NCBI GenBank assembly: GCA_965215015.1
Contig: OZ244042.1
Span: forward strand, 320,001-384,000
Direction of reading: 5' to 3'
Length of the DNA: 64,000 bases
From: Candidatus Poribacteria bacterium
Lineage (GTDB): Bacteria > Poribacteria > WGA-4E > PCPOR2b
The position numbers and the translations under genes were made by a program. This document shows positions 5,836 through 61,040 of the stretch, one piece after another. The notes beneath the pieces were generated by a model. It ran no database searches and was not told where the DNA came from. It was given only the letters and a program-made list of their open reading frames with translations. How positions within the stretch are numbered: position 1 is the first letter of the stretch; each line of letters begins with the position of its first letter.

Positions 5836-7545
5836 GTGAAGGCAGGGGAGAGGGTAACCGTAACGGCCACCGGCACGGCAGGGCGGAGGGCTACCTTCTC
5901 GGTCGGCTCGGTTATCTCCAATGTCGCTATGAACGAGCTCCCGTCGGGGACATATACCGGCAGCTTTACTGTCGTTGACGACGTGCACGATGGGGTACAG
6001 ACTGTCACTGTCAATCTTGACGGGGCCCAAACAACGGCAGGGACTCTCACCATTGACACCGCCGAGCCAACCGTAACGGTTCAGGTCTCTCCTGCGAACG
6101 CTACCAATGGCGATACGGTTACCATCACCGCTACGGTGTCCGAGGCAGTGACTTCTGTAGAGGCGGATGTCTCCGCACTTGATACGACACAAACGGCACC
6201 GATTCGACTGACGCTATCCAATAGTACCTATAGTGGATCCTTCACTATCAGTAATGATAACCAAGCAGCCGATGGCCCGCAAACCATCACTGTAACAGCA
6301 ACAGACATCGCCGACAACAGCGGCATCGGGTCTACAACCGTGACCTTGACAAACATACTGAGATACACTTCAACGATATCGCCAGGAGTTAGCCTGCTCC
6401 ACGTGCCGTTGGATGTCGAAGGCCTCGACACCGTGGGTGATCTCCGCAGTATGCTTGGCAGTGCTGTCGCTCTGATAATTACCTATGATCCCGCTTCAGG
6501 GTCGTGGAATAGCCGTAGTAACGATGTGATAATTACAGCCGACCTCGGCATCATTGTTTCAATGATCTCCGAGAAGACAGTCACTTTCACAGGCGATGCG
6601 TGGGGGAACGGCACCTCGACGATAAGCCTCCACAGAGGAACAAATCTCATCGGGTTGCCCGTCAATGCTCCAGGGGTGACGAATGTCAGTGACATCATGG
6701 CTCTGTTTGGTAGGGGTGTAGTCACAAGCATGATTGTTTCGACAGGTCCCGGTCAATTCCACTCGGTCAGTCGAGCCGGAGCCCCAGGGGATATCCCCAT
6801 CATGGGGGATGTGGCATATCTTGTAACGGCGACCGCCAATAAGACCGTTACCCTCACGGGTACCGGTTGGCGTAATGGTGGCGCAGGTGCCGCGCCCATC
6901 CCGCTCGTTGGATACAAGGACGACAGCCAGACGCCTGTCCTGTCTGTTGAAGGTGCTGTCGTTGATGAAATCACCGGACTCGCAAAAGAGGGCTTCCGGG
7001 TCAAGGTGAAGAACCTATCAACAAAAGCATCACTCAGCAGCATCACCTCAGTCGAATCAGCAAATGGCTACAACATAACCTTTGTTAATCTGACCGACGG
7101 CTATACAGCACAGGTCGGAGATGTGCTGGAGGTTTCCGTTGATTCCCCAGATCCGCTAATTGGTGTCAAACCGGGGCACCACATCGTTACGGTTGATGAT
7201 GTGAAAAGTAGCCGTATCCAGTTGGAAGACCTCATCGCGTATGAGATTCCCGCGGAGACGCAGCTTCTGCGGAACTACCCGAATCCCTTCAATCCCGAAA
7301 CGTGGATTCCGTATCGTTTGGCAGAGGATGCCGACGTATCGTTGACCATTTACGATTCAAACGGAGGACTGGTCCGAACCATCCATGTGGGACATAAGAT
7401 CGCAGCAGTGTATGAGTCGAAAGCGAAAGCAATCTACTGGGATGGCCGTAACCGTTTCGGTGAACAAATTGCGAGCGGCGTGTACTTCTACAACCTGAGC
7501 GCAGGGGACTTCTCAGCCACCCGCAAGATGCTGATCCTGAAGTAG
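5836..7545 (+). CDS. C-terminal part of the same surface protein: Ig-like repeats plus T9SS-type-A/FlgD-Ig-like sorting domain
   Basis: Frame is open upstream through the poly-C (PPPPDAPVVLILTATVDRSIVKAG); no signal peptide; C-terminus LLRNYPNPFNPETWIPY...WDGRN..GE..ASGVYFY.L.AGDFSATRKMLILK. Confidence 0.85.
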   Translation: MKAGERVTVTATGTAGRRATFSVGSVISNVAMNELPSGTYTGSFTVVDDVHDGVQTVTVNLDGAQTTAGTLTIDTAEPTVTVQVSPANATNGDTVTITATVSEAVTSVEADVSALDTTQTAPIRLTLSNSTYSGSFTISNDNQAADGPQTITVTATDIADNSGIGSTTVTLTNILRYTSTISPGVSLLHVPLDVEGLDTVGDLRSMLGSAVALIITYDPASGSWNSRSNDVIITADLGIIVSMISEKTVTFTGDAWGNGTSTISLHRGTNLIGLPVNAPGVTNVSDIMALFGRGVVTSMIVSTGPGQFHSVSRAGAPGDIPIMGDVAYLVTATANKTVTLTGTGWRNGGAGAAPIPLVGYKDDSQTPVLSVEGAVVDEITGLAKEGFRVKVKNLSTKASLSSITSVESANGYNITFVNLTDGYTAQVGDVLEVSVDSPDPLIGVKPGHHIVTVDDVKSSRIQLEDLIAYEIPAETQLLRNYPNPFNPETWIPYRLAEDADVSLTIYDSNGGLVRTIHVGHKIAAVYESKAKAIYWDGRNRFGEQIASGVYFYNLSAGDFSATRKMLILK

Positions 7546-7556
7546 CCTCCGCAATA

Positions 7557-7602
7557 GTTCATTAGTTCATCAATTCATGAATCAACCGATGAACTAATGA
7601 AC
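7557..7602. repeat. Perfect 15-bp inverted repeat with 8-nt periodic arms (family D), possible terminator
   Basis: gttcattagttcatc (7557-7571) / gatgaactaatgaac (7588-7602), 11 bp after the stop of the surface-protein gene. Confidence 0.7.
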
Positions 7603-7639
7603 AAATTGTTTTCATGCCGCCCGCCTCCTGTTTCACACA

Positions 7640-7694
7640 TCACACCCACACCGTATACATCAAGTGATCTAAGATGCACCCACGCAACGACCAG
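7640..7694 (-). pseudogene. Relic of the 3' end of a DUF6785/6784-type gene
   Basis: 45/55 nt identical to 10183-10237, first 21 nt exact; minus strand reads WSLRGCILDHLMYTVWV* versus WSLLGIILDRPMYTVWV*. Confidence 0.8.
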
Positions 7695-7703
7695 TTTATA
7701 CCG

Positions 7704-8102
7704 CGGAGGTTGGGTTGAGCGGAACCGATGAAAAGCGTCAACATATTACCCAACGAGGCCGGGGGGGCTCTGATTGGAATTTTGTAAATTGAGTGAAACC
7801 CAACACTTGATCGTCGGTTAGATTGAGGCGTTGGGTTTCACTGTATCTATCTTAGGACTTACGCACGTATACACAAGTTTCCAACCTGTAATCGCCCGCA
7901 GAGCCCCGATGGATCAGGATTTCCGCTGCGCTGCAACCTGCCCTCGATTTTATCGGGGTCAGCAAACCTGCGCGACGATGGGGGATAATTCGACGTTCTG
8001 ACTACTAAACTGCGTAATCCCTTATAAAGTGCTGTTTTTGAAAGGTAAAACCTCTATTGTCTTTTATGGGTACTGGTGTCTAACCGTTCAACCCAACCTC
8101 CG
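7704..8102. mobile_element. REP-doublet (REPIN-like) element containing a nested MITE
   Basis: Terminal IR cggaggttgggttgagcgg (7704-7722) / ccgttcaacccaacctccg (8084-8102), 18/19 match; internal gaaacccaac/gttgggtttc pair. Confidence 0.7.
7853..8023. mobile_element. MITE with TAGGACTTACGCA-type terminal inverted repeats
   Basis: TAGGACTTACGCA (7853-7865) ... TGCGTAATCCCTT (8011-8023); same TIR family at 17874, 22097, 24411, 47141 and 56551. Confidence 0.6.
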
Positions 8103-49930: not shown

Positions 49931-51052
49931 CTACGTCCGTTCTTCGATCGGCACAAACGACTTTGGCTCGGGGCCAATGTATGCCGCCCTTGGGCGAATC
50001 AACCGATTATCGCTGCGCTGCTCAATGACATGGGCGGCCCAGCCGGTGATTCGTGACATCACAAAGATGGGGGTGAACATCGGTGTCGGGATACCGCACA
50101 GATGATAAGCAGAGGCACTGTAGAAATCGAGGTTCGGGAATAGCTTCTTTTCCCGCCACATCACCTGATCAATCCGTTCAGAGACTTCGTAAAGTAACCT
50201 ATCTCTGCTTGACTCAGAGAGTTTCTGTGCCCAACCCTTAATGATATCCGAACGTGGGTCGGAGATTTTGTAGACGCGATGGCCAAAGCCCATGATTAGC
50301 TGCCTTTCTGCGAGCATCTTCAAAATGGCGGCTTCGGCTTCGTCCGGCGTCTGGAATTGTGCAATAAGTTCCATCGCTGCTTCGTTTGCACCGCCGTGCA
50401 AGGGACCGCGCAACGTTCCAATGGCTGCAACAACCGCGGAATAGACATCGGATAAAGTAGAGGTTGCGACTCGCGCTGCAAACGTTGATGCGTTAAACTC
50501 GTGCTCTGCATAAAGGATTAATGACACATCAACGGCCCTGCGTTGCAGTTCATCCGGTCGTTTCCCATGCAACAAGTGCAGAAAGTGTCCAGCGGTGGTT
50601 TCATCCTCCGTTTCAACGTCAATCTGTTTGCCGTTAGTGTGGAGATGATGCCAGTAGAGCAGCATTGAACCGAAACAGGCGGTCAGTCGATCCGCAATGT
50701 GAAGCGAATCACTTTTGTCGTTTTCAGCTTCCAGCGTTCCCAAAGCTGAACAACCGGTACGCAGGACATCCATTGGATGTGCATCCCCCGGCACTTGCTC
50801 AAGCACTATTTTGAGTCCATCCGGTAGACTACGCAGTTCCATCAGTTTTTTCGTGTAGTTATCAAGCTCGGTTTGCGTTGGTAGTTTGCCGTGAATCAGC
50901 AGGTAGGCCGTCTCTTCAAAGGTAGCATGTTCTGCTAAATCGTGAATGGAATACCCGCGATAGGTGAGTCCAACGCCCTCTTTTCCCACCGTAGCGATTG
51001 CGGTTTCGCCTGCGATAACGCCGGCTAACCCCCCGGTTTTTTCAGTCTGCAT
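49931..51052 (-). CDS. prpC: 2-methylcitrate synthase
   Basis: GLAGVIAG.TAI, LYAEHEFNASTF, GPLHGGANEAAM, GFGHRVY, LFPNLDFYSA; adjacent to prpB. Confidence 0.92.
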   Translation of the reverse strand: MQTEKTGGLAGVIAGETAIATVGKEGVGLTYRGYSIHDLAEHATFEETAYLLIHGKLPTQTELDNYTKKLMELRSLPDGLKIVLEQVPGDAHPMDVLRTGCSALGTLEAENDKSDSLHIADRLTACFGSMLLYWHHLHTNGKQIDVETEDETTAGHFLHLLHGKRPDELQRRAVDVSLILYAEHEFNASTFAARVATSTLSDVYSAVVAAIGTLRGPLHGGANEAAMELIAQFQTPDEAEAAILKMLAERQLIMGFGHRVYKISDPRSDIIKGWAQKLSESSRDRLLYEVSERIDQVMWREKKLFPNLDFYSASAYHLCGIPTPMFTPIFVMSRITGWAAHVIEQRSDNRLIRPRAAYIGPEPKSFVPIEERT

Positions 51053-51109
51053 TGGTCTTATCCTCCTCTGTCAATTTAGTGGGAACCGTTGGAAGGATTA
51101 ATCTTTTGC

Positions 51110-51203
51110 AATGAATAGATAGGGGCTTTTCTCTGAATTTAACGCAACGTCGCATCCCCTTACCCTCTGCGCCTCCCCCTGCTTGCGGGGGGACTGAGGG
51201 GGG
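51110..51203. repeat. Dispersed composite repeat (copy of 38639-38766 family) between prpB and prpC
   Basis: gcttttctctgaatttaacgcaacgtcgc...ccccctgcttgcggggggactgagggg. Confidence 0.75.
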
Positions 51204-55496: not shown

Positions 55497-56461
55497 CTTG
55501 GGGTATCCTGTCTGAAAAACGCATCCACCTGTGACTCCTGCTGCTCAAGCTCGGCGAGCCGACGGCGGCTGCGCTGTCGGCATCGGAGATACACTATAAT
55601 AAATACCAACCCAAGGCTGCCCCAAAAGAGATACGAATTTGAGAATATCGCTGCCCAATAGTAACGTTGGGAGAGCGAGGCTTGCCATTCTGCGTCGAAT
55701 CTGGCGAGATCCCAGCCGATGGCCTGTTCATACGCGGTATTCAGATCGTTCCCCGCGCCAAGTAGGTCGATAACCTCCCACAGCTTTTCGACCCCTGCAA
55801 TTTTTGTCAACCACACAACCGCATTCAAGCTCTCTGCGTAAGCCAACTGCGCCCCTCTTTCAGCACTTGGAAACCGCTCCGCTAGCTCCGCGAGCGGAAT
55901 AATCGATCTCGACAGGATATGTTCAAACATAACCTCCTGGCGGTGTGGCGTCCACTCTCCGGAAAGGTAAATCGCAATCCCTTCAATAAACCACAAGGGG
56001 ATGTCTCCAATCGTAGATTTCGTGCGCTGTCCAAAGGCGATGTGCACAATTTCGTGGCGGAGGACTTGGGAGAGTTGAAACTTTCGATCAATGATAACAC
56101 GTGGGTTCTGAATCACAATGCGGCGACTGAGTGGGAACGCACAACCGACCGCCCAATCTTGGATGGGAGCATGGGCGGCGGCTTTGAATTGCTGCTGTGT
56201 CTTGCATATCCAAATCTCAATCTTGTCCATCTCTATCCCATCAATCAGACGGTTGATGTGGGGATAGAAGTCCTCGGCAATATCGGCAATATCTTGGGGG
56301 TGGGTTTCGTCGGATTGGTAATAGATCTGGAAGTGCTCGCTGTCAAGCCTTTCCCAGGCAGCCTCAGCTGCGCTATGTAGTGTAACTGCGCTGAGGATCA
56401 GAAGAGTTAGCAAACAGAACCGGGAAAGAGGGCGTAATGCTTTCCAACCGATAACGTCCAT
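55493..56461 (-). CDS. Peptidase MA-like (gluzincin) membrane-anchored metallopeptidase
   Basis: HEIVH (HExxH), PLWFIEGIA, AYAES; signal peptide and C-terminal TM. Confidence 0.85.
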   Translation of the reverse strand: MDVIGWKALRPLSRFCLLTLLILSAVTLHSAAEAAWERLDSEHFQIYYQSDETHPQDIADIAEDFYPHINRLIDGIEMDKIEIWICKTQQQFKAAAHAPIQDWAVGCAFPLSRRIVIQNPRVIIDRKFQLSQVLRHEIVHIAFGQRTKSTIGDIPLWFIEGIAIYLSGEWTPHRQEVMFEHILSRSIIPLAELAERFPSAERGAQLAYAESLNAVVWLTKIAGVEKLWEVIDLLGAGNDLNTAYEQAIGWDLARFDAEWQASLSQRYYWAAIFSNSYLFWGSLGLVFIIVYLRCRQRSRRRLAELEQQESQVDAFFRQDTPS

Positions 56462-56550
56462 GCTCTTGCCCGTCCTTTTGTAGTGGATGCCAAAAAAGTT
56501 ACGCCATTAAAGCATGATGCCCCTCTAAGGATTTGGCAACCTTAGAAAGT

Positions 56551-56826
56551 TAGAAGTTACGCACCTGAGTTTGTAGTCGCGCAATTCAACCCGCGTCTTT
56601 AAGGGAGTAGGCATACCCCGTATGCCGTCCCCCCTTCCCCGCTAAATACCGGGTGGAGTGTCCATCAATTCCTGGCTCATTGGACCTGTTTCCCCCTCGC
56701 TTGCGTTCTTGGGGGACTAAGGGGAGTAATCCCGAATACCCACACGGTTTTTTCCCCTCCCCCTGCTTGCGGGGGGACTGAGGGGGGTAATCCCGAATAC
56801 CCACACGGTTCTTTTCCCCTCCCCCT
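56551..56826. mobile_element. Composite MITE/REP cluster
   Basis: Left TIR TAGAAGTTACGCA; segment similar to ~22131-22265; tandem cccgaatacccacacggtt...ccccctgcttgcgggggg units. Confidence 0.6.
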
Positions 56827-56865
56827 TTGTTACCGATGCAAAAAGATTTGTCGATGGTGATACCT

Positions 56866-57645
56866 ATCCTGTTTATCCTTCCATCCTGAAAATCATGATT
56901 CAGCACACGGATTCAAATAGCCACCTTATCTGATTCAGACATTTTCCGCCGCTGTCAGAATCTGGATTTACCGGATTCTATGATTCTCAGGATTCTTAGA
57001 TGATGGCGTTTCTATCCTGTTTATCCTTCCATCCTGGAAACCCTGATTCAGCACACGGATTCAAAGACTGTCAGAATCTGGATTTACCGGATTCTATGAT
57101 TCTCAGGATTCTTAGATGCTAGCGTTTCTATCCTGTTTATCTCTCCAGCCTGGAAACCCTGATTCAGACATTTTCCGCACAATCCACAATAGCCATTTCT
57201 TCACGAGTCAGAACGTATTAAACGTATTAATTGTCAGAATCTGGATTCACCAGATTGTGTGATTCTCAGGATTCTTAGATGATGGCGTTTCTATCCTGTT
57301 TATCCTTCCATCCTGAAAATCTTGATTCAGACATTTTCCGCACAATCCACAATAGCCATTTCTTCACGAGTCAGAACGTATTAAACGTATTAATTGTCAG
57401 AATCTGGATTCACCAGATTCTATGATTCGCAGGATTCTTAGATGCTGCCGTTTCTATCCTGTTTATCCTTCCATCCTGAAAATCATGATTCAGACATTTT
57501 CCGCACAATCCACAATAGCCATTTCTTCATCGGATACCTCGGCTGTCAGAATCTGGATTTACCGGATTGTATGATTCTCAGGATGTTTAGATGCTGCCGT
57601 TTCTATCCTGTTTATCCTTCCATCCTGAAAATCATGATTCAGACA
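56866..57645. repeat. Array of five ~102-bp palindromic elements (TGTCAGAATC...GATTCAGACA) plus one half element
   Basis: Elements at 56953-57053, 57069-57170, 57232-57333, 57395-57496 and 57544-57645; right-arm half at 56866-56903; spacers of 15, 61, 61 and 47 bp. Confidence 0.93.
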
Positions 57646-60600
57646 TTTCCCTCCACAATAGCGATTTCTTCAGAGGTAAGACCGTATAACAAGTATACTA
57701 TCTGATCAATCTCATTTTCAAGTTCGGATACATCCGCGTCCGGATCCGTGTCTTTGGCAGCGAGAATCTGATTGACGATTTTGACAATTGCTCCTTGTTG
57801 TCCAGGAGTAATAGTTGGAACAGGAATCTTGCCTACATAGTAGTTATCGAAATCCATAGTTCTAATTGCGGCACAAAAAATAAACCTGTAAGCATACCAG
57901 TTTATGAGCGTTGAATTAAAAAGAGATGCAATAAAAAACGGACTAAAATTTTTATCTGTAATGACCGTGTTTTCGACTGTATCAACACTCAGTATATTGC
58001 CAGCTTCATCAACCGTTGAAGTTATTTTGATATGAGGCTTAGGATTCTGAATATGAGCCACAAGCCTCTGAGAAATTACTTTCGGCTGAAGCAAAAATCG
58101 AATTTTTCGATTGGTCAGATCTAAATTTTCACAGTTTATAAATCCTTTTATTCCTACAATTCCATACCGGCTTACCTCTTTTCCGCCAATCACTTGAGTA
58201 TCACCATGCGTGCTGAGATATTTTTGTATAGGCAATCCTCGCGTTGTTTTAGAAATGTTGCTGAGATACGTCCCTGCCCCCACAATCTTTGAACCCAGTT
58301 TAATCTCATCACTTGACACATCACATATCCAAGCATGAAACTGTTTGGGATATTTCCTATTGATATGAATTGTTCGCGTAAAAACATTATTCAAGAACTT
58401 ACGCCCAATGTAAAAACGACTATTACATTGAGCACTCCAAATAAAAACAACCTGCTCCAACTTGACCTCTCCAAATGCTTTTTCAACATCTACTAAAATA
58501 GCTGTCTTTTCTAATAGAGCGAAAGTTAAATCCAGCCATCTTTCGGAATACAACAGAGATTTAGGAACAATAAAAGCAACAACACCATCTGCCCTATCAG
58601 TCCTAATTAAACGGTTCTTTGCATAATCAATAAACAATGCCGCACTGTTTGAATTTCTCGTGTCTTGGATATTAACTTTGATCTTGTTCAAGTCGCTGCG
58701 GTTAATTTTAGCACCATACGGCGGATTGCCAATCACTACATCAAAGCCCTCCCTGACCCCAAACATCCACTCCGGATCGAACCAATCCGCGCTTGCGTTC
58801 TGGTCGTAGGGGTCCCAAGCGGCGACTTTATTCGCATCATCGGTAGGCATACCGATATGCGTTAATTCTGTCGCCAATGCTCGCCGCAATTTCTTGTCGG
58901 CTCGCTTACACTCTAGTTTCTGTGAGCGTGTCGTTGCGTGAAAATGCCGCTCGCGGTTCTCACTCAATTCCCCTTCCAATGCTTTGGCCCTGGGGCTGGT
59001 CAGGGTTCGTTCGCCTTCGAGACCGATGAGCGTGTTTGCCGAGATAAATCGTGTCTCCAGATTGGGCAGCGGCTTAATCCCAAAGTTAGCTGAGGCACTA
59101 TCCGGCTCCTGCTCAATGGCAAGGGAGATGAAAAAGCGGAGCTTAGCGATTTGGCAGGCTATGGATTGAATGTCCACACCGAAGATACTGTTTTGAATCA
59201 GATACAACTTCCGTCCGAAGTTGCCCGAATAATTTTCAAAGATTCTGCTAATTTCCGTGAGCTCTTCGTCGCGGCTCTGTCTATCCTTCGTATCAAACGC
59301 ATCCGCCGCCCGTTGGAGGGCGCGTTCTTTCTGTAGCTGTTCCCATCGGGTGTTATCCGGGTCCAGCCGTCGTAGGGCGAGCGTCAGTTTGTGTAGTATC
59401 CCCATCGGAAACGCCCCGGAGCCGACGGCGGGGTCAAGTATCTTCAGTTCTGAAATTGCCCGCACCACCTCGTCGGCTTCGCGGCTATCGAACCATTCGT
59501 TTGCATCGTCGAACGCCTTCGCATAATCGAACAGATAGCGCAACCGCTCGTCCCAAGCCTTGGGGTCTCCGTCCGTCGGGGCCACCTGTCCTGCAAGCGT
59601 GGCTACTAACGTCTCCTCTACCATGTAGTCCACAATGGCGCGGGGGGTGTAATAGGAACCCGTCTGCTTCCGTGCCGTTGTACCAGTTTCGGGGTTATAC
59701 GCAGCGAGCAGGTTTTCAAACACCTTACCGAGCAGCTCCGGATCCAATGCGACCTCCTGCTCTATCGGTGTGTTTTCTTCAACGGTGAACTTGTAGCGTT
59801 CCAGTAGGGGAATCAGACCGTAAGCATCATCAAAGAAGAGACGGTTGGGGATGCTTAATTGACTGTAATGCACATCGGAGAAGCAATCCACCCGGTAGCC
59901 GCCATCTCGTGTCGCCTCCTCGCTGTCGAGGCAATCGAATAAGCCACCGTTAATGAATGGGGTTTTCTCAAAGAGTGCTAGCAGTTTATCGGAATCGGCT
60001 ATCTGGTCTTTGTAGCGATACCGTGAGAAATTGCGATGAGCCGGGTTGCCCCCTTCGCTAAACCCACGCTTCTCTATCTCCGTGTTCAGCGTGGCGAAAA
60101 ACAGATTCTGTAGCACCGCCCGGTAGTAGGAATCGCCCGTGCCCCGGTCATAGTTTTTCAGCAATGGGGCGACGGGCGTCTCGTTGAACAGGTCATCGGC
60201 GACCAGTCCCTTCTCTTTGATAAACCAGACGAATAGCAGGCGCGTGATTAAGCGGATGACGTGCTCCTCCGATTTCAAGGTACGCTTTTCGTTTGTCGGG
60301 AACTCCCCTTCATCAACCGCCCATTCAAACCAGTCGAACAACTCTCGGTAGAATTTCTTGTTGAGTGCTTCGGTGTCGAGTGTCTTTTCCCAAGCGCGAT
60401 GCAGCTCGACAAAGTTGCGGACACCGTGCGTTTGGTTCAACGGGTCGAGGGCGAGATCGAATAGGATATCGATGTGGGCGCGGTGGGGATACTCGAAATT
60501 AATGTCCTTGATAAGGGTTACTTTTTCAAGGACATCGCGGGATGGGTCCCTTACCCCCAAACGGCGATTGATAATTGACAGCGTGAGCGTATTGCCGTGT

Positions 60601-61040
60601 TGAAAGAGCAGCATCGCGGGTATCGAGAACAACTTGTTGATTTCACGGGTGATTTGCGATAGTTGGGTGCGGTTGTAACCGCTGCCCTCCAACCGGATTG
60701 CGAAGAAAAGGTAGGACTCGATGATGGTGTTATCTACCTGCGTCTGGCTGGGATTGAAAATCCATCGGGTTGTATCCGTGGGCGTCAGCTCCTCGCCTGT
60801 GAGTTGGAAAAGCAGGTCAATAGAGGTCCACTCTGCTGTCAGTGCCCTATCGCGACTTAGTTTTTCTTGCGAATCATACGCGTCAATAAAGGCCTCGGCG
60901 GTATTCGACTCAAGGGCTAGCGTCCTTTCGCTCCGATAGCCGAGTGTGTTGAGTAGGTTTCGGCTGTTTTCGACGAGGCCCCCCGCGGTGAAGCGGTTTA
61001 AGGCCTCCTTGATAGCGGTTTTGTGTTGTGGGGCACTCAT
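57639..61040 (-). CDS. Type IIG/Eco57I-like N6-adenine DNA methyltransferase with TaqI-C-like TRD
   Basis: PFINGGLF, DPELLGKVFENLL, GSYYTPR, DPAVGSGAF (motif I), GFDVVIGNPPY (motif IV), C-terminal EIDQIVYLLYGLT.EEIAIVE; RBS aggag. Confidence 0.92.
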   Translation of the reverse strand: MSAPQHKTAIKEALNRFTAGGLVENSRNLLNTLGYRSERTLALESNTAEAFIDAYDSQEKLSRDRALTAEWTSIDLLFQLTGEELTPTDTTRWIFNPSQTQVDNTIIESYLFFAIRLEGSGYNRTQLSQITREINKLFSIPAMLLFQHGNTLTLSIINRRLGVRDPSRDVLEKVTLIKDINFEYPHRAHIDILFDLALDPLNQTHGVRNFVELHRAWEKTLDTEALNKKFYRELFDWFEWAVDEGEFPTNEKRTLKSEEHVIRLITRLLFVWFIKEKGLVADDLFNETPVAPLLKNYDRGTGDSYYRAVLQNLFFATLNTEIEKRGFSEGGNPAHRNFSRYRYKDQIADSDKLLALFEKTPFINGGLFDCLDSEEATRDGGYRVDCFSDVHYSQLSIPNRLFFDDAYGLIPLLERYKFTVEENTPIEQEVALDPELLGKVFENLLAAYNPETGTTARKQTGSYYTPRAIVDYMVEETLVATLAGQVAPTDGDPKAWDERLRYLFDYAKAFDDANEWFDSREADEVVRAISELKILDPAVGSGAFPMGILHKLTLALRRLDPDNTRWEQLQKERALQRAADAFDTKDRQSRDEELTEISRIFENYSGNFGRKLYLIQNSIFGVDIQSIACQIAKLRFFISLAIEQEPDSASANFGIKPLPNLETRFISANTLIGLEGERTLTSPRAKALEGELSENRERHFHATTRSQKLECKRADKKLRRALATELTHIGMPTDDANKVAAWDPYDQNASADWFDPEWMFGVREGFDVVIGNPPYGAKINRSDLNKIKVNIQDTRNSNSAALFIDYAKNRLIRTDRADGVVAFIVPKSLLYSERWLDLTFALLEKTAILVDVEKAFGEVKLEQVVFIWSAQCNSRFYIGRKFLNNVFTRTIHINRKYPKQFHAWICDVSSDEIKLGSKIVGAGTYLSNISKTTRGLPIQKYLSTHGDTQVIGGKEVSRYGIVGIKGFINCENLDLTNRKIRFLLQPKVISQRLVAHIQNPKPHIKITSTVDEAGNILSVDTVENTVITDKNFSPFFIASLFNSTLINWYAYRFIFCAAIRTMDFDNYYVGKIPVPTITPGQQGAIVKIVNQILAAKDTDPDADVSELENEIDQIVYLLYGLTSEEIAIVEGNV

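Follow-up and report, generated by a model that had tools for sequence, protein, structure and literature searches.

Downstream of an Eco57I-like RM gene of Candidatus Poribacteria, imperfect palindromes lie in tandem, and the spacers between them read, on the strand of the gene, as further copies of its 3′ end. How did a coding fragment come to alternate with a palindrome, and does the array keep a record of earlier alleles of the gene? The locus lies in a window of 64,000 nucleotides (contig OZ244042.1 of assembly GCA_965215015.1, positions 320,001 to 384,000). With moderate confidence, we favor the view that the array is a young, species-specific satellite, which expands by unequal recombination and is shuffled among RM paralogs along with the swapping of their TRDs.

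The gene (57639..61040, minus strand) is one of six paralogs in the genome, and its ORF translates into a product of 1133 residues with the C-terminus ...LYGLTSEEIAIVEGNV*. Pfam matches to this product are Eco57I (1.7e-18) and N6_Mtase (9.1e-09); a TaqI_C match (3e-05) reaches 24.7 bits, slightly below the 26.5-bit cut-off. The predicted protein has the make-up of a type IIG enzyme (Eco57I/MmeI-like), namely a single polypeptide with an N6-adenine MTase and a putative TaqI-like specificity domain. Its final codon and stop (GTC TGA) are inside the terminus of the adjacent element.

The window array consists of five full 102-bp imperfect-palindrome elements and one half element, with the elements on the plus strand and the tail relics on the minus strand. 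Nearest to the gene is element copy 5 (57544..57645; 94% to the reference copy in blastn), whose right terminus overlaps the gene stop. It is followed by tail relic 3 (57497..57543), a 47-nt spacer that reads AEVSDEEMAIVDCAENV* together with the element terminus, by element copy 4 (57395..57496), which was the reference copy and query in our searches, and by tail relic 2 (57334..57394), a 61-nt spacer that reads ..YVLTREEMAIVDCAENV* and holds a 9-nt internal duplication. Beyond element copy 3 (57232..57333) lies tail relic 1 (57171..57231), also 61 nt, and then element copy 2 (57069..57170); copies 2 and 3 were delimited by blastn and an alignment of the copies. A 116-nt unit (56953..57068, plus strand) comprises element copy 1 (56953-57054) with a truncated insertion module at its right end and has no tail relic. 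The distal array edge (56864..56952, plus strand) combines a right-half element (56864-56903), a 35-nt insertion module and the tail stub TTTTCCGCCGC. Tandem Repeats Finder reports a period of 163 with 3.6 copies at 57069-57648 (90% matches, score 880) and a period of 116 with 1.9 copies at 56952-57167 (95% matches, score 397). The sequence-only reading of this DNA had thus described the layout correctly: coordinates and ORF place five elements of about 102 bp in tandem beside the gene, the last over its stop; relics 1 and 2 are identical at 61 of 61 positions; the minus-strand translations are those of diverged tails of the RM gene family; and the relic stops all fall at the same place in the element terminus. 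The identical 61-nt spacers sit between elements that differ at about 6–11% of positions, a combination that simple recent duplication alone does not predict.

An array of this kind might be an assembly artefact of a repeat-rich MAG, and no short-read contig spans it, the contigs breaking inside. However, the genome was assembled as one 5.94-Mb contig, and exact pieces over the relic-to-element joint (57323-57419 and 57323-57425) are present in sequencing runs of two studies, as is a piece over the element-to-gene joint (57604-57723) in one run of the second study. Site-specific variants at the thirteen sites described below would also be hard to obtain by misassembly, and we regard an artefact as extremely improbable.

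This 102-bp element is a member of a family, abundant in this genome, that has termini of the GTCTGAATC type and repeated GGATT/ATCC motifs. Its two ends, TGTCAGAATC and GATTCAGACA, form imperfect inverted repeats. With the reference element, we obtained 238 HSPs in 67 clusters genome-wide, many of them half copies; full-length elements number 72 at 13 sites, and termini number 373, compared to about 11 expected by a rough estimate from related 10-mers. The 102-bp element shares with MITEs its small size, non-coding nature, terminal inverted repeats and many dispersed copies. The array edges have no consistent target-site duplication, and filled and empty sites were seen for whole arrays only. 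No autonomous parent was found, as the three candidate intervals between terminus pairs 0.3–4 kb apart enclose no transposase. An IS1595-like element adjoining array H was rejected as the parent, its ends being unrelated to the array element. A REP/BIME system with an associated RAYT was rejected as well: Y1 transposase (PF01797) has two matches here, of which one is partial and the other interrupted by an internal stop, versus 2–10 in congeners, and Y1 does not co-distribute with the arrays.

The layout is not confined to the window. Arrays of element-plus-tail units occur at 13 sites, namely the 3′ ends of all six Eco57I-like paralogs and seven sites without an Eco57I-like gene neighbor. Each repeat unit, of about 150 bases, consists of the palindromic element and the last 17 or so codons of the RM gene, and the units run head-to-tail in up to 18 copies per array as assembled. 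A tail-motif scan of the genome gave 52 sites, six of which are live gene tails. The same relic-to-element joint recurs in 30 units at eight or more loci of this genome, compared to none in 175 other Poribacteria genomes, and the metagenome scan gave no match to it. The terminus-plus-tail pattern has 43 copies here versus 0–6 in each of 19 congeners, the element and array numbers of congeners coming from pattern scans and first-look counts; reversed-pattern controls for both scans returned no matches. For 50.3 of 70 units, the nearest neighbor belongs to the same array, compared to a mean of 7.3 and a maximum of 17.7 in 200 label shuffles. As units are most similar to their neighbors in the same array, the arrays appear to have grown in place; within arrays, spacers are identical.

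At 12 of the 13 sites, a gene 3′ end lies within 106 nt of the array and the gene reads toward the right end of the element, which suggests targeting or selection. Neither GC skew nor gene-strand bias is strong enough to locate the replication origin, on which any assessment of a replication-strand bias of array orientation would depend. The constant position downstream of a gene, in one orientation, would also suit an array that acts as RNA, either as a structured 3′ UTR that stabilizes or terminates the RM transcript or through antisense small RNAs against the tail, and single units do form more stable folds than shuffled sequence (z = −2.2 to −3.2). Yet the region 55500-58500 has no Rfam match at E ≤ 1, and the 71 distinct copies show no compensatory variation, the observed covariation score being reached by 474 of 500 shuffles. 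One promoter-like and one terminator-like site were detected, versus 3.0 and 1.5 expected from shuffles, and both are inside the gene instead of the array. An RNA function is therefore very unlikely in our estimate.

The satellite that we favor could have arisen as follows. A small tandem duplication between two near-identical words, TTGTTATAC in the gene tail and TTGTATAC just past the element, may have created the first unit; these microhomology words at the joint are read directly from the single-copy locus L and from the array joints. The array would then have grown and shrunk via unequal crossing-over or replication slippage, and arrays would have spread through homologous recombination between paralogs, the very process that swaps TRDs. 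A 3′ crossover out of register, between a donor relic and the live tail of the recipient, would add a unit and leave the older tail behind. The arrays may incidentally lengthen the 3′ homology arm used in TRD exchange, and no function is needed. No intermediates of the microhomology origin or of out-of-register conversion were seen, and we infer both steps.

Comparisons of the tails link distant loci. The live tail at the window is 94% and 88% identical to two relics of locus C (3.337 Mb), 3 Mb away, and the window relics are 88% identical to the live tails at loci L (3.500 Mb) and C. Since live tails match relics at distant loci, and vice versa, tails have clearly moved between loci, as judged from sequence. 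At loci E and F, relics and the live tail of the same locus share 96% identity. No other unit in the genome has the joint that links the gene-proximal relic of the window array (57497..57543) to the next element, which points to more than one rearrangement at this locus.

The RM family was also compared part by part with blastp. In each of the six mosaic paralogs, a foreign TRD lies between an N-terminal part and a tail that are both conserved. The N-terminal parts of five of the six share 89–94% mutual identity and are at most 85% identical to any foreign gene. The nearest relative of each TRD, in turn, is in a gene from a different species or phylum (69–87% identical); each TRD is confined to its own gene in this genome, and identity between the TRDs of different paralogs is mostly 5–25%, one pair (L and F) reaching 83%. 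The genes of this family clearly exchange TRDs.

Exchange of TRDs in this family would also be expected if the palindrome were an insertion site to which whole TRD-plus-tail cassettes had been added serially and then collapsed, leaving the integron-like, ordered record of alleles that the sequence-only reading proposed. Consistent with such a record, relic variants are unlike the adjacent live gene and match tails of other paralogs, the gene-proximal relic has its own joint, and a weak relic of about 50 codons is present in array F, where three weak matches reach 37–50 tail residues while relic matches mostly span 17–27. However, no orphan or silent TRD cassette, whole or partial, was detected between elements at any of the 13 sites, and the elements of the window array enclose neither ORFs nor TRD fragments. 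Where intact cassettes had been anticipated, this genome shows a single unit duplicated in tandem: identical units recur within arrays, and the same unit occurs at seven sites that have no Eco57I-like gene. Nor are the gene-distal units simply the most decayed, as had been claimed. The two gene-distal elements have consensus similarities of 0.93 and 0.90, compared to 0.94–0.97 for the others, but the distal units represent other types, one 116 nt long and one of about 148 nt that includes a tail stub of 11 nt. These types recur in arrays I, J and K (the 116-nt type in I and K), and the distal units are not older alleles. No recombinase match lies within about 270 kb of the window. What survives of the idea of earlier alleles is that the relics carry other tail variants, which have moved between loci; a locus-specific, polarized cassette record at a dedicated site does not, and we give it only a slim chance.

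Related genomes place the expansion in this species. In Poribacteria relatives, an element copy lies at the stop codon of homologous RM genes, and tail-relic matches behind these single elements are confined to 10–14 nt (E 0.009–0.037; 12 of 65 loci). By-eye tail look-alikes in other species, for example at L013, were dismissed as not significant, given the weakness and shortness of these matches. The site orthologous to the window locus is about 47 nt long in one congener (G001), holds an RM paralog without any array in another (G003), and is occupied by about 1.1–1.3 kb of other sequence in seven further species. Array B, with 18 units, sits at a site that is empty (20–150 nt) in those congeners where both flanks were found, none of which has an RM gene there. 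Paralog recombination, therefore, does not explain the route by which the array reached this new site.

That gap is what a mobile element would fill. The element might be a miniature integrative element, a near-bare recombination site moved in trans by an Xer-like tyrosine recombinase. If the attachment site included the gene tail, each further integration beside an existing copy would extend an element-plus-tail array by accretion. A recombinase unit of about 1.19 kb has at least five copies or fragments in this genome, and its left end carries TGTCTGAATCAGGATT.TCAGGAT, which is the start of the right half of the element in gene sense. The Xer-like recombinase of 333 residues is encoded at genome positions 2380293-2381294. 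The recombinase query has 14 matches here versus 0–6 in 17 of 18 sampled congeners and 10 in the other (G023), and foreign matches are all at most 58% identical. Immediately before a more distant copy of the recombinase gene lies an array of elements from a diverged subfamily. Accretion would be in keeping with the empty site of array B, with the right-end-to-gene orientation at 12 of 13 sites, and with a right-half module that is 93% identical over 44 nt in four unrelated metagenome contigs that have no array, a degree of conservation that implies that a protein recognizes the module. On the other hand, the similarity between recombinase unit and element is one-ended and spans only about 24–40 nt, and none of the 13 array sites has a recombinase gene. 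An element terminus was found within 600 nt upstream at none of 28 foreign recombinase loci, so that the link between element and recombinase rests on one or two paralogous units. None of the 11 tyrosine recombinase matches (PF00589) in the genome is in the window, and the nearest, at genome position 50 kb, precedes the window start by about 270 kb. Accretion is further opposed by the clustering of units by array, without mixing, and by the restriction of tail relics in this genome to genes of the RM family. Relics lie behind five of 43 terminus-trailed genes (control, five of 150). Four of the five are RM paralogs; the other is an ORF extending into its own array, and it is the sole case among 39 non-RM genes. 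At the non-RM arrays, the gene-side edges fall at varied points within the tail or element, as deletion end points would. We consider movement by this recombinase unlikely. A more specific version, in which it moves 150-bp mini-elements (the site plus a surrogate type IIG gene end) and the arrays serve as landing pads for TRD-plus-tail modules moving between the six paralogs, is in our view still more doubtful. Such a system, if real, would be smaller than any integrative cassette system known and would be dedicated to altering restriction specificity.

If the favored satellite is correct, the locus shows a coding fragment caught in a small mobile palindrome and amplified to a satellite within one bacterial species. 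A further outcome of the analysis is the description of six type IIG paralogs, from an uncultured sponge symbiont, that swap TRDs between a conserved body and tail; the arrays mark the exact 3′ border of TRD exchange, giving a handle on crossover positions. Should the recombinase lead prove true, a new and very small kind of site-specific cassette machinery would be at hand; should it fail, the locus would be instructive yet would exemplify ordinary repeat dynamics in a genome rich in repeats. In the literature on MITE tandem arrays and on RM systems and repeats of Poribacteria, to the extent that its text was available, we found no description of the element-plus-tail layout, and none of the papers covered joins Poribacteria with miniature inverted-repeat elements.

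MITEs and REP/BIME repeats are short, non-coding, imperfect palindromes of high copy number, which are intergenic, often lie after genes, are sometimes clustered, and are present or absent between related genomes. The element described here resembles them in being a short non-coding imperfect palindrome in high copy, located after genes and variable in presence. In contrast, the unit here includes a coding fragment, the gene tail, and forms head-to-tail arrays of up to 18 copies, with no target-site duplication, no two-ended autonomous parent and only two broken or partial Y1 matches. A CRISPR array was rejected, since the repeats are 102 bp and variable and the spacers repeat within and between arrays. 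An integron has an integrase with an adjacent attI site, followed by ORF-bearing cassettes that each end in attC. The likeness here lies in imperfect palindromes right at ORF stops, in one orientation, and in a small family of Xer-like tyrosine recombinases in the genome. An integron was nevertheless rejected, given the lack of PF00589 matches in the window and of an adjacent integrase or attI-like site, and the absence of ORFs and TRD fragments between the palindromes; the element termini do not appear to fit the attC core consensus.

Integrative and cis-mobilizable elements have been described as accreting in tandem at the 3′ ends of target genes (PMC5704250). In that account, older, decayed units are farther from the gene, and the layout here fits units bounded by att repeats that include the target gene end. 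The elements described there are kilobases long, carry or carried integrase genes and use one target gene, whereas the units here are about 150 bp, the array sites have no integrase, and some arrays are located away from the target family. Movement of TRDs between RM paralogs by homologous recombination at conserved flanks was reported for the Type III mod genes of Helicobacter pylori (Furuta and Kobayashi 2012; PMC3467074). The enzymes here are single-chain type IIG enzymes of Poribacteria, and the abstract of that paper makes no mention of left-over gene-tail arrays. Otherwise the two cases are much alike, with paralogs at different loci, conserved non-TRD parts, relatives of the TRDs elsewhere, including distant bacteria, and gene parts whose trees would be expected to disagree.

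The array downstream of the Eco57I-like restriction-modification (RM) gene comprises five full 102-bp elements, starting at 56953, 57069, 57232, 57395 and 57544, together with a right-half copy at 56864–56903. Tandem Repeats Finder reported a period of 163 nt with 3.6 copies (90% matches, score 880; 57069–57648) and a second of 116 nt with 1.9 copies (score 397). The gene (57639..61040, minus strand) encodes a protein of 1133 residues with the C-terminal end LYGLTSEEIAIVEGNV and Pfam matches to Eco57I, N6_Mtase and TaqI_C; the stop codon of the gene falls within the last element's terminus. The two 61-nt spacers are identical (61/61), and all three spacers read on the minus strand as tail relics, with a common stop in the element terminus. 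Repeat finding, element matches and the ORF thus confirm the layout proposed in the sequence-only reading, namely five tandem elements of ~102 bp with the last overlapping the RM stop, and the spacers are, as it held, diverged copies of the RM 3′ end with the stop at a constant element position (3/3). Unit numbers are taken from one assembly; short-read contigs do not span the arrays. An unrelated G-rich 61-nt tandem repeat of 1.9 copies and, beside it, a stretch whose word depth in public runs is very high lie nearby (56711–56826 and 56568–56634), suggesting that further high-copy repeats adjoin the array.

The genome, a single contig of 5.94 Mb, is most closely related to Candidatus Poribacteria MAGs. 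The element copy at 57395–57496 gave 238 HSPs in 67 clusters. The genome scan proposed earlier yielded 72 full-length copies at 13 sites, six at RM paralogs and seven elsewhere: 5 at A (the window), 18 at B, 6 at C, 7 at D, 8 at E, 5 each at F and G, 3 at H, 4 each at I and J, 5 at K, and single copies at L and M. The ~52-nt spacers of the other arrays belong to the same sequence family as those of the window, with the gene-strand reading LYGL(P/T)PEEIAIVECAENV then stop, and variants. The tail motif occurs at 52 sites, six of which are live gene ends. These belong to Eco57I-like paralogs of 1133–1208 residues, each with an element or array at its stop (6/6); a seventh, distant relative (26–28% identical) has neither. 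The remaining seven sites follow unrelated genes, with DUF1156 methylase genes as neighbours at two of them. At 12 of the 13 sites, the right end of the element is at most 106 nt from the 3′ end of a gene reading toward it, the distance at site K being 417 nt. One 7-unit array is located between DUF1156 methylase and DUF499 ATPase genes (3663603–3670936). The reading frame of a paralogous methylase (5660581–5663469) continues into an array edge, so that the protein ends in TIKIVEGAENV, not TIKEVLPPKQAPVP. An IS1595-like insertion sequence (5411895–5413004 and 2385326–2386452) with a 294-residue transposase abuts array H; it is present as two full copies, 94% identical, and one fragment.

The ends of the element are imperfect inverted repeats, and GGATT/ATCC motifs are iterated within it. 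Of 373 copies of the terminus in the genome, only eight supply a stop codon, five of them to RM paralogs and one to a DUF1156 methylase joined to an array edge. Compared with shuffled sequence, the units fold better; no compensatory variation was found among element copies, and an Rfam search of the array region returned no match. Many further tandem arrays, whose unit bodies differ, also end in the right-half module; its clusters face a gene 3′ end 33 times out of 78, versus 11 of 78 in the opposite sense. These other arrays, with periods of 100, 103, 112, 144, 228 and 365, all end in the 40-nt module (3401969–3403009, 3712713–3713355, 3458045–3458291, 4098088–4098704 and 4109253–4110189, among others), and several follow defence genes, among them a further type IIG gene and a helicase-methylase pair. 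A right-half-like module with 93% identity across 44 nt is present in metagenome contigs that are unrelated and AT-richer (L111, L112 and L113). In L111, 3 nt separate the module from the stop codon of an FtsX/MacB permease gene, and a look-alike of that gene's tail (~55 nt) is found across the element, just ahead of the next FtsX paralog.

The six RM paralogs are mosaics. Their first ~775 residues are mostly 80–100% identical and their last ~60 residues 76–95%, whereas the intervening 300–370 residues, the target-recognition domain (TRD), are 5–25% identical, except for 83% between paralogs L and F. When the protein parts were compared separately by blastp with 67 homologs from other genomes, five paralogs had one another as best matches in the N-terminal part (89–94%, with foreign genes at or below 85%), while the best TRD match of each paralog was a foreign gene. 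For the window gene, the best TRD match is a Latescibacterota gene (77%); other TRDs are 86–87% identical to genes of other Poribacteria. The same pattern is described for Helicobacter Type III systems, in which TRDs move by homologous recombination at conserved flanks (PMC3467074). The conserved tail, plus whatever comes after it, is the 3′ flank of TRD exchange.

The relics indicate traffic of tails between loci. Relics in arrays E and F match the live tails of their own loci at 96% identity. The window gene ends in a short form, EGNV then stop, and this live tail is closest to two array C relics 3 Mb away (94% and 88%); for the window relics, the closest sequences are the live tails at L and C (88%). 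Tails have thus passed from one locus to another, and those in an array can differ from the tail of its present gene. The joint of the gene-proximal window relic is single-copy in the genome, and a second type of unit, present in arrays C, F and H, combines a right-half element with a longer, decayed stretch of tail (~50 codons), so tail-to-element joints arose more than once. Most relic matches span 17–27 tail residues, with three weak matches in array F reaching 37–50. No TRD sequence was found outside its own gene in this genome; the TRD cassettes anticipated between elements are absent there, the relics being tail pieces only.

Comparison with other genomes indicates that the arrays are young and species-specific. 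The terminus-plus-tail pattern has 43 copies here versus 0–6 in each of 19 congeners, and the relic-to-element joint, present in 30 copies, was not found in 175 other Poribacteria genomes with up to three mismatches allowed. At the site orthologous to the window array, the flanking genes are ~47 nt apart in one congener (G001). Another (G003) has an RM paralog but no array there, the stop and terminus of the paralog being immediately next to the upstream region of the neighbouring gene, and seven further species have ~1.1–1.3 kb of other sequence. The array B site is empty (20–150 nt) in congeners with both flanks found. Among RM homologs of other genomes, 18 of 65 have a similar terminus at or just past the stop, as part of a single element. 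Three Latescibacterota loci (L069, L071 and L072) carry tandem arrays with periods of 111, 147, 175 and 282 on both sides of RM homologs, their units ending in a related terminus; arrays built on the terminus are therefore not confined to Poribacteria. Downstream of the RM homolog in many other Poribacteria and one Latescibacterota genome (loci L010, L012, L014, L017, L018, L022, L023, L034 and L046), the next gene begins MSKPLKGFITYSHKD and may encode a TIR-type domain; long coding repeats of 102-nt period, which may be TPR-like, are also frequent at these loci.

The arrays grew locally: the nearest relative lies in the same array for 50.3 of 70 units, against a mean of 7.3 and a maximum of 17.7 in 200 label shuffles, and mean unit identity is 0.908 within and 0.868 between arrays. 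At locus L, with its single element, the sequence after the element begins ATTGTATAC; the gene tail contains CTTGTTATAC then GGTC, and the array joint is the element end, ATTGTATAC (or a one-base variant) and GGTC. From these near-identical words and the joint, we infer a founding tandem duplication between ATTGTATAC and CTTGTTATAC. Unequal recombination would then have expanded and contracted the arrays, and the homologous exchanges that swap TRDs would also have spread them among paralogs. In an out-of-register 3′ crossover, a donor relic pairing with the recipient live tail would add a unit and strand the older tail. If so, the arrays would be a partial, heavily overwritten record of earlier tails.

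Duplication and recombination leave three features unexplained: the presence of arrays at sites that are otherwise empty, their constant orientation toward genes, and the conservation (93%) of the right-half module in unrelated contigs. All three point to active, protein-guided mobility. The main rival explanation is that a Xer-like tyrosine recombinase moves the units. Its own unit, of ~1.19 kb and in at least five copies or fragments (2380105–2381296, 6754–7903, 3847613–3848726, 2700656–2701400, 2864644–2865331, 2858003–2858492 and 50251–51168, all outside the window), contains the first 24–40 nt of the element's right half at its left end. The conserved left end carries the element terminal motif, and the far end is exactly the stop codon of the gene. 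The recombinase has 14 matches in this genome versus 0–6 in 17 of 18 congeners sampled (10 in the other, G023), and all foreign matches are at or below 58% identity. Immediately ahead of a further, more distant copy lies an array formed by a diverged subfamily of the element. Against such a mover, none of 28 foreign loci shows a link to the element, no recombinase gene was found at the array sites, tail relics in this genome are confined to RM genes, and units group by array. For integrative elements far larger than the units here, tandem accretion at att sites containing a gene end is an established process (PMC5704250).

The sequence-only reading finds partial support: spacers are relic gene tails, and relic and live-tail identities across distant loci show that tails move between loci. 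An integron-like, locus-specific cassette record is not supported, since the unit is genome-wide and TRD cassettes are lacking in this genome. The structure is best filed with MITE-like repeat arrays and TRD-shuffling RM families, as a variant of both.
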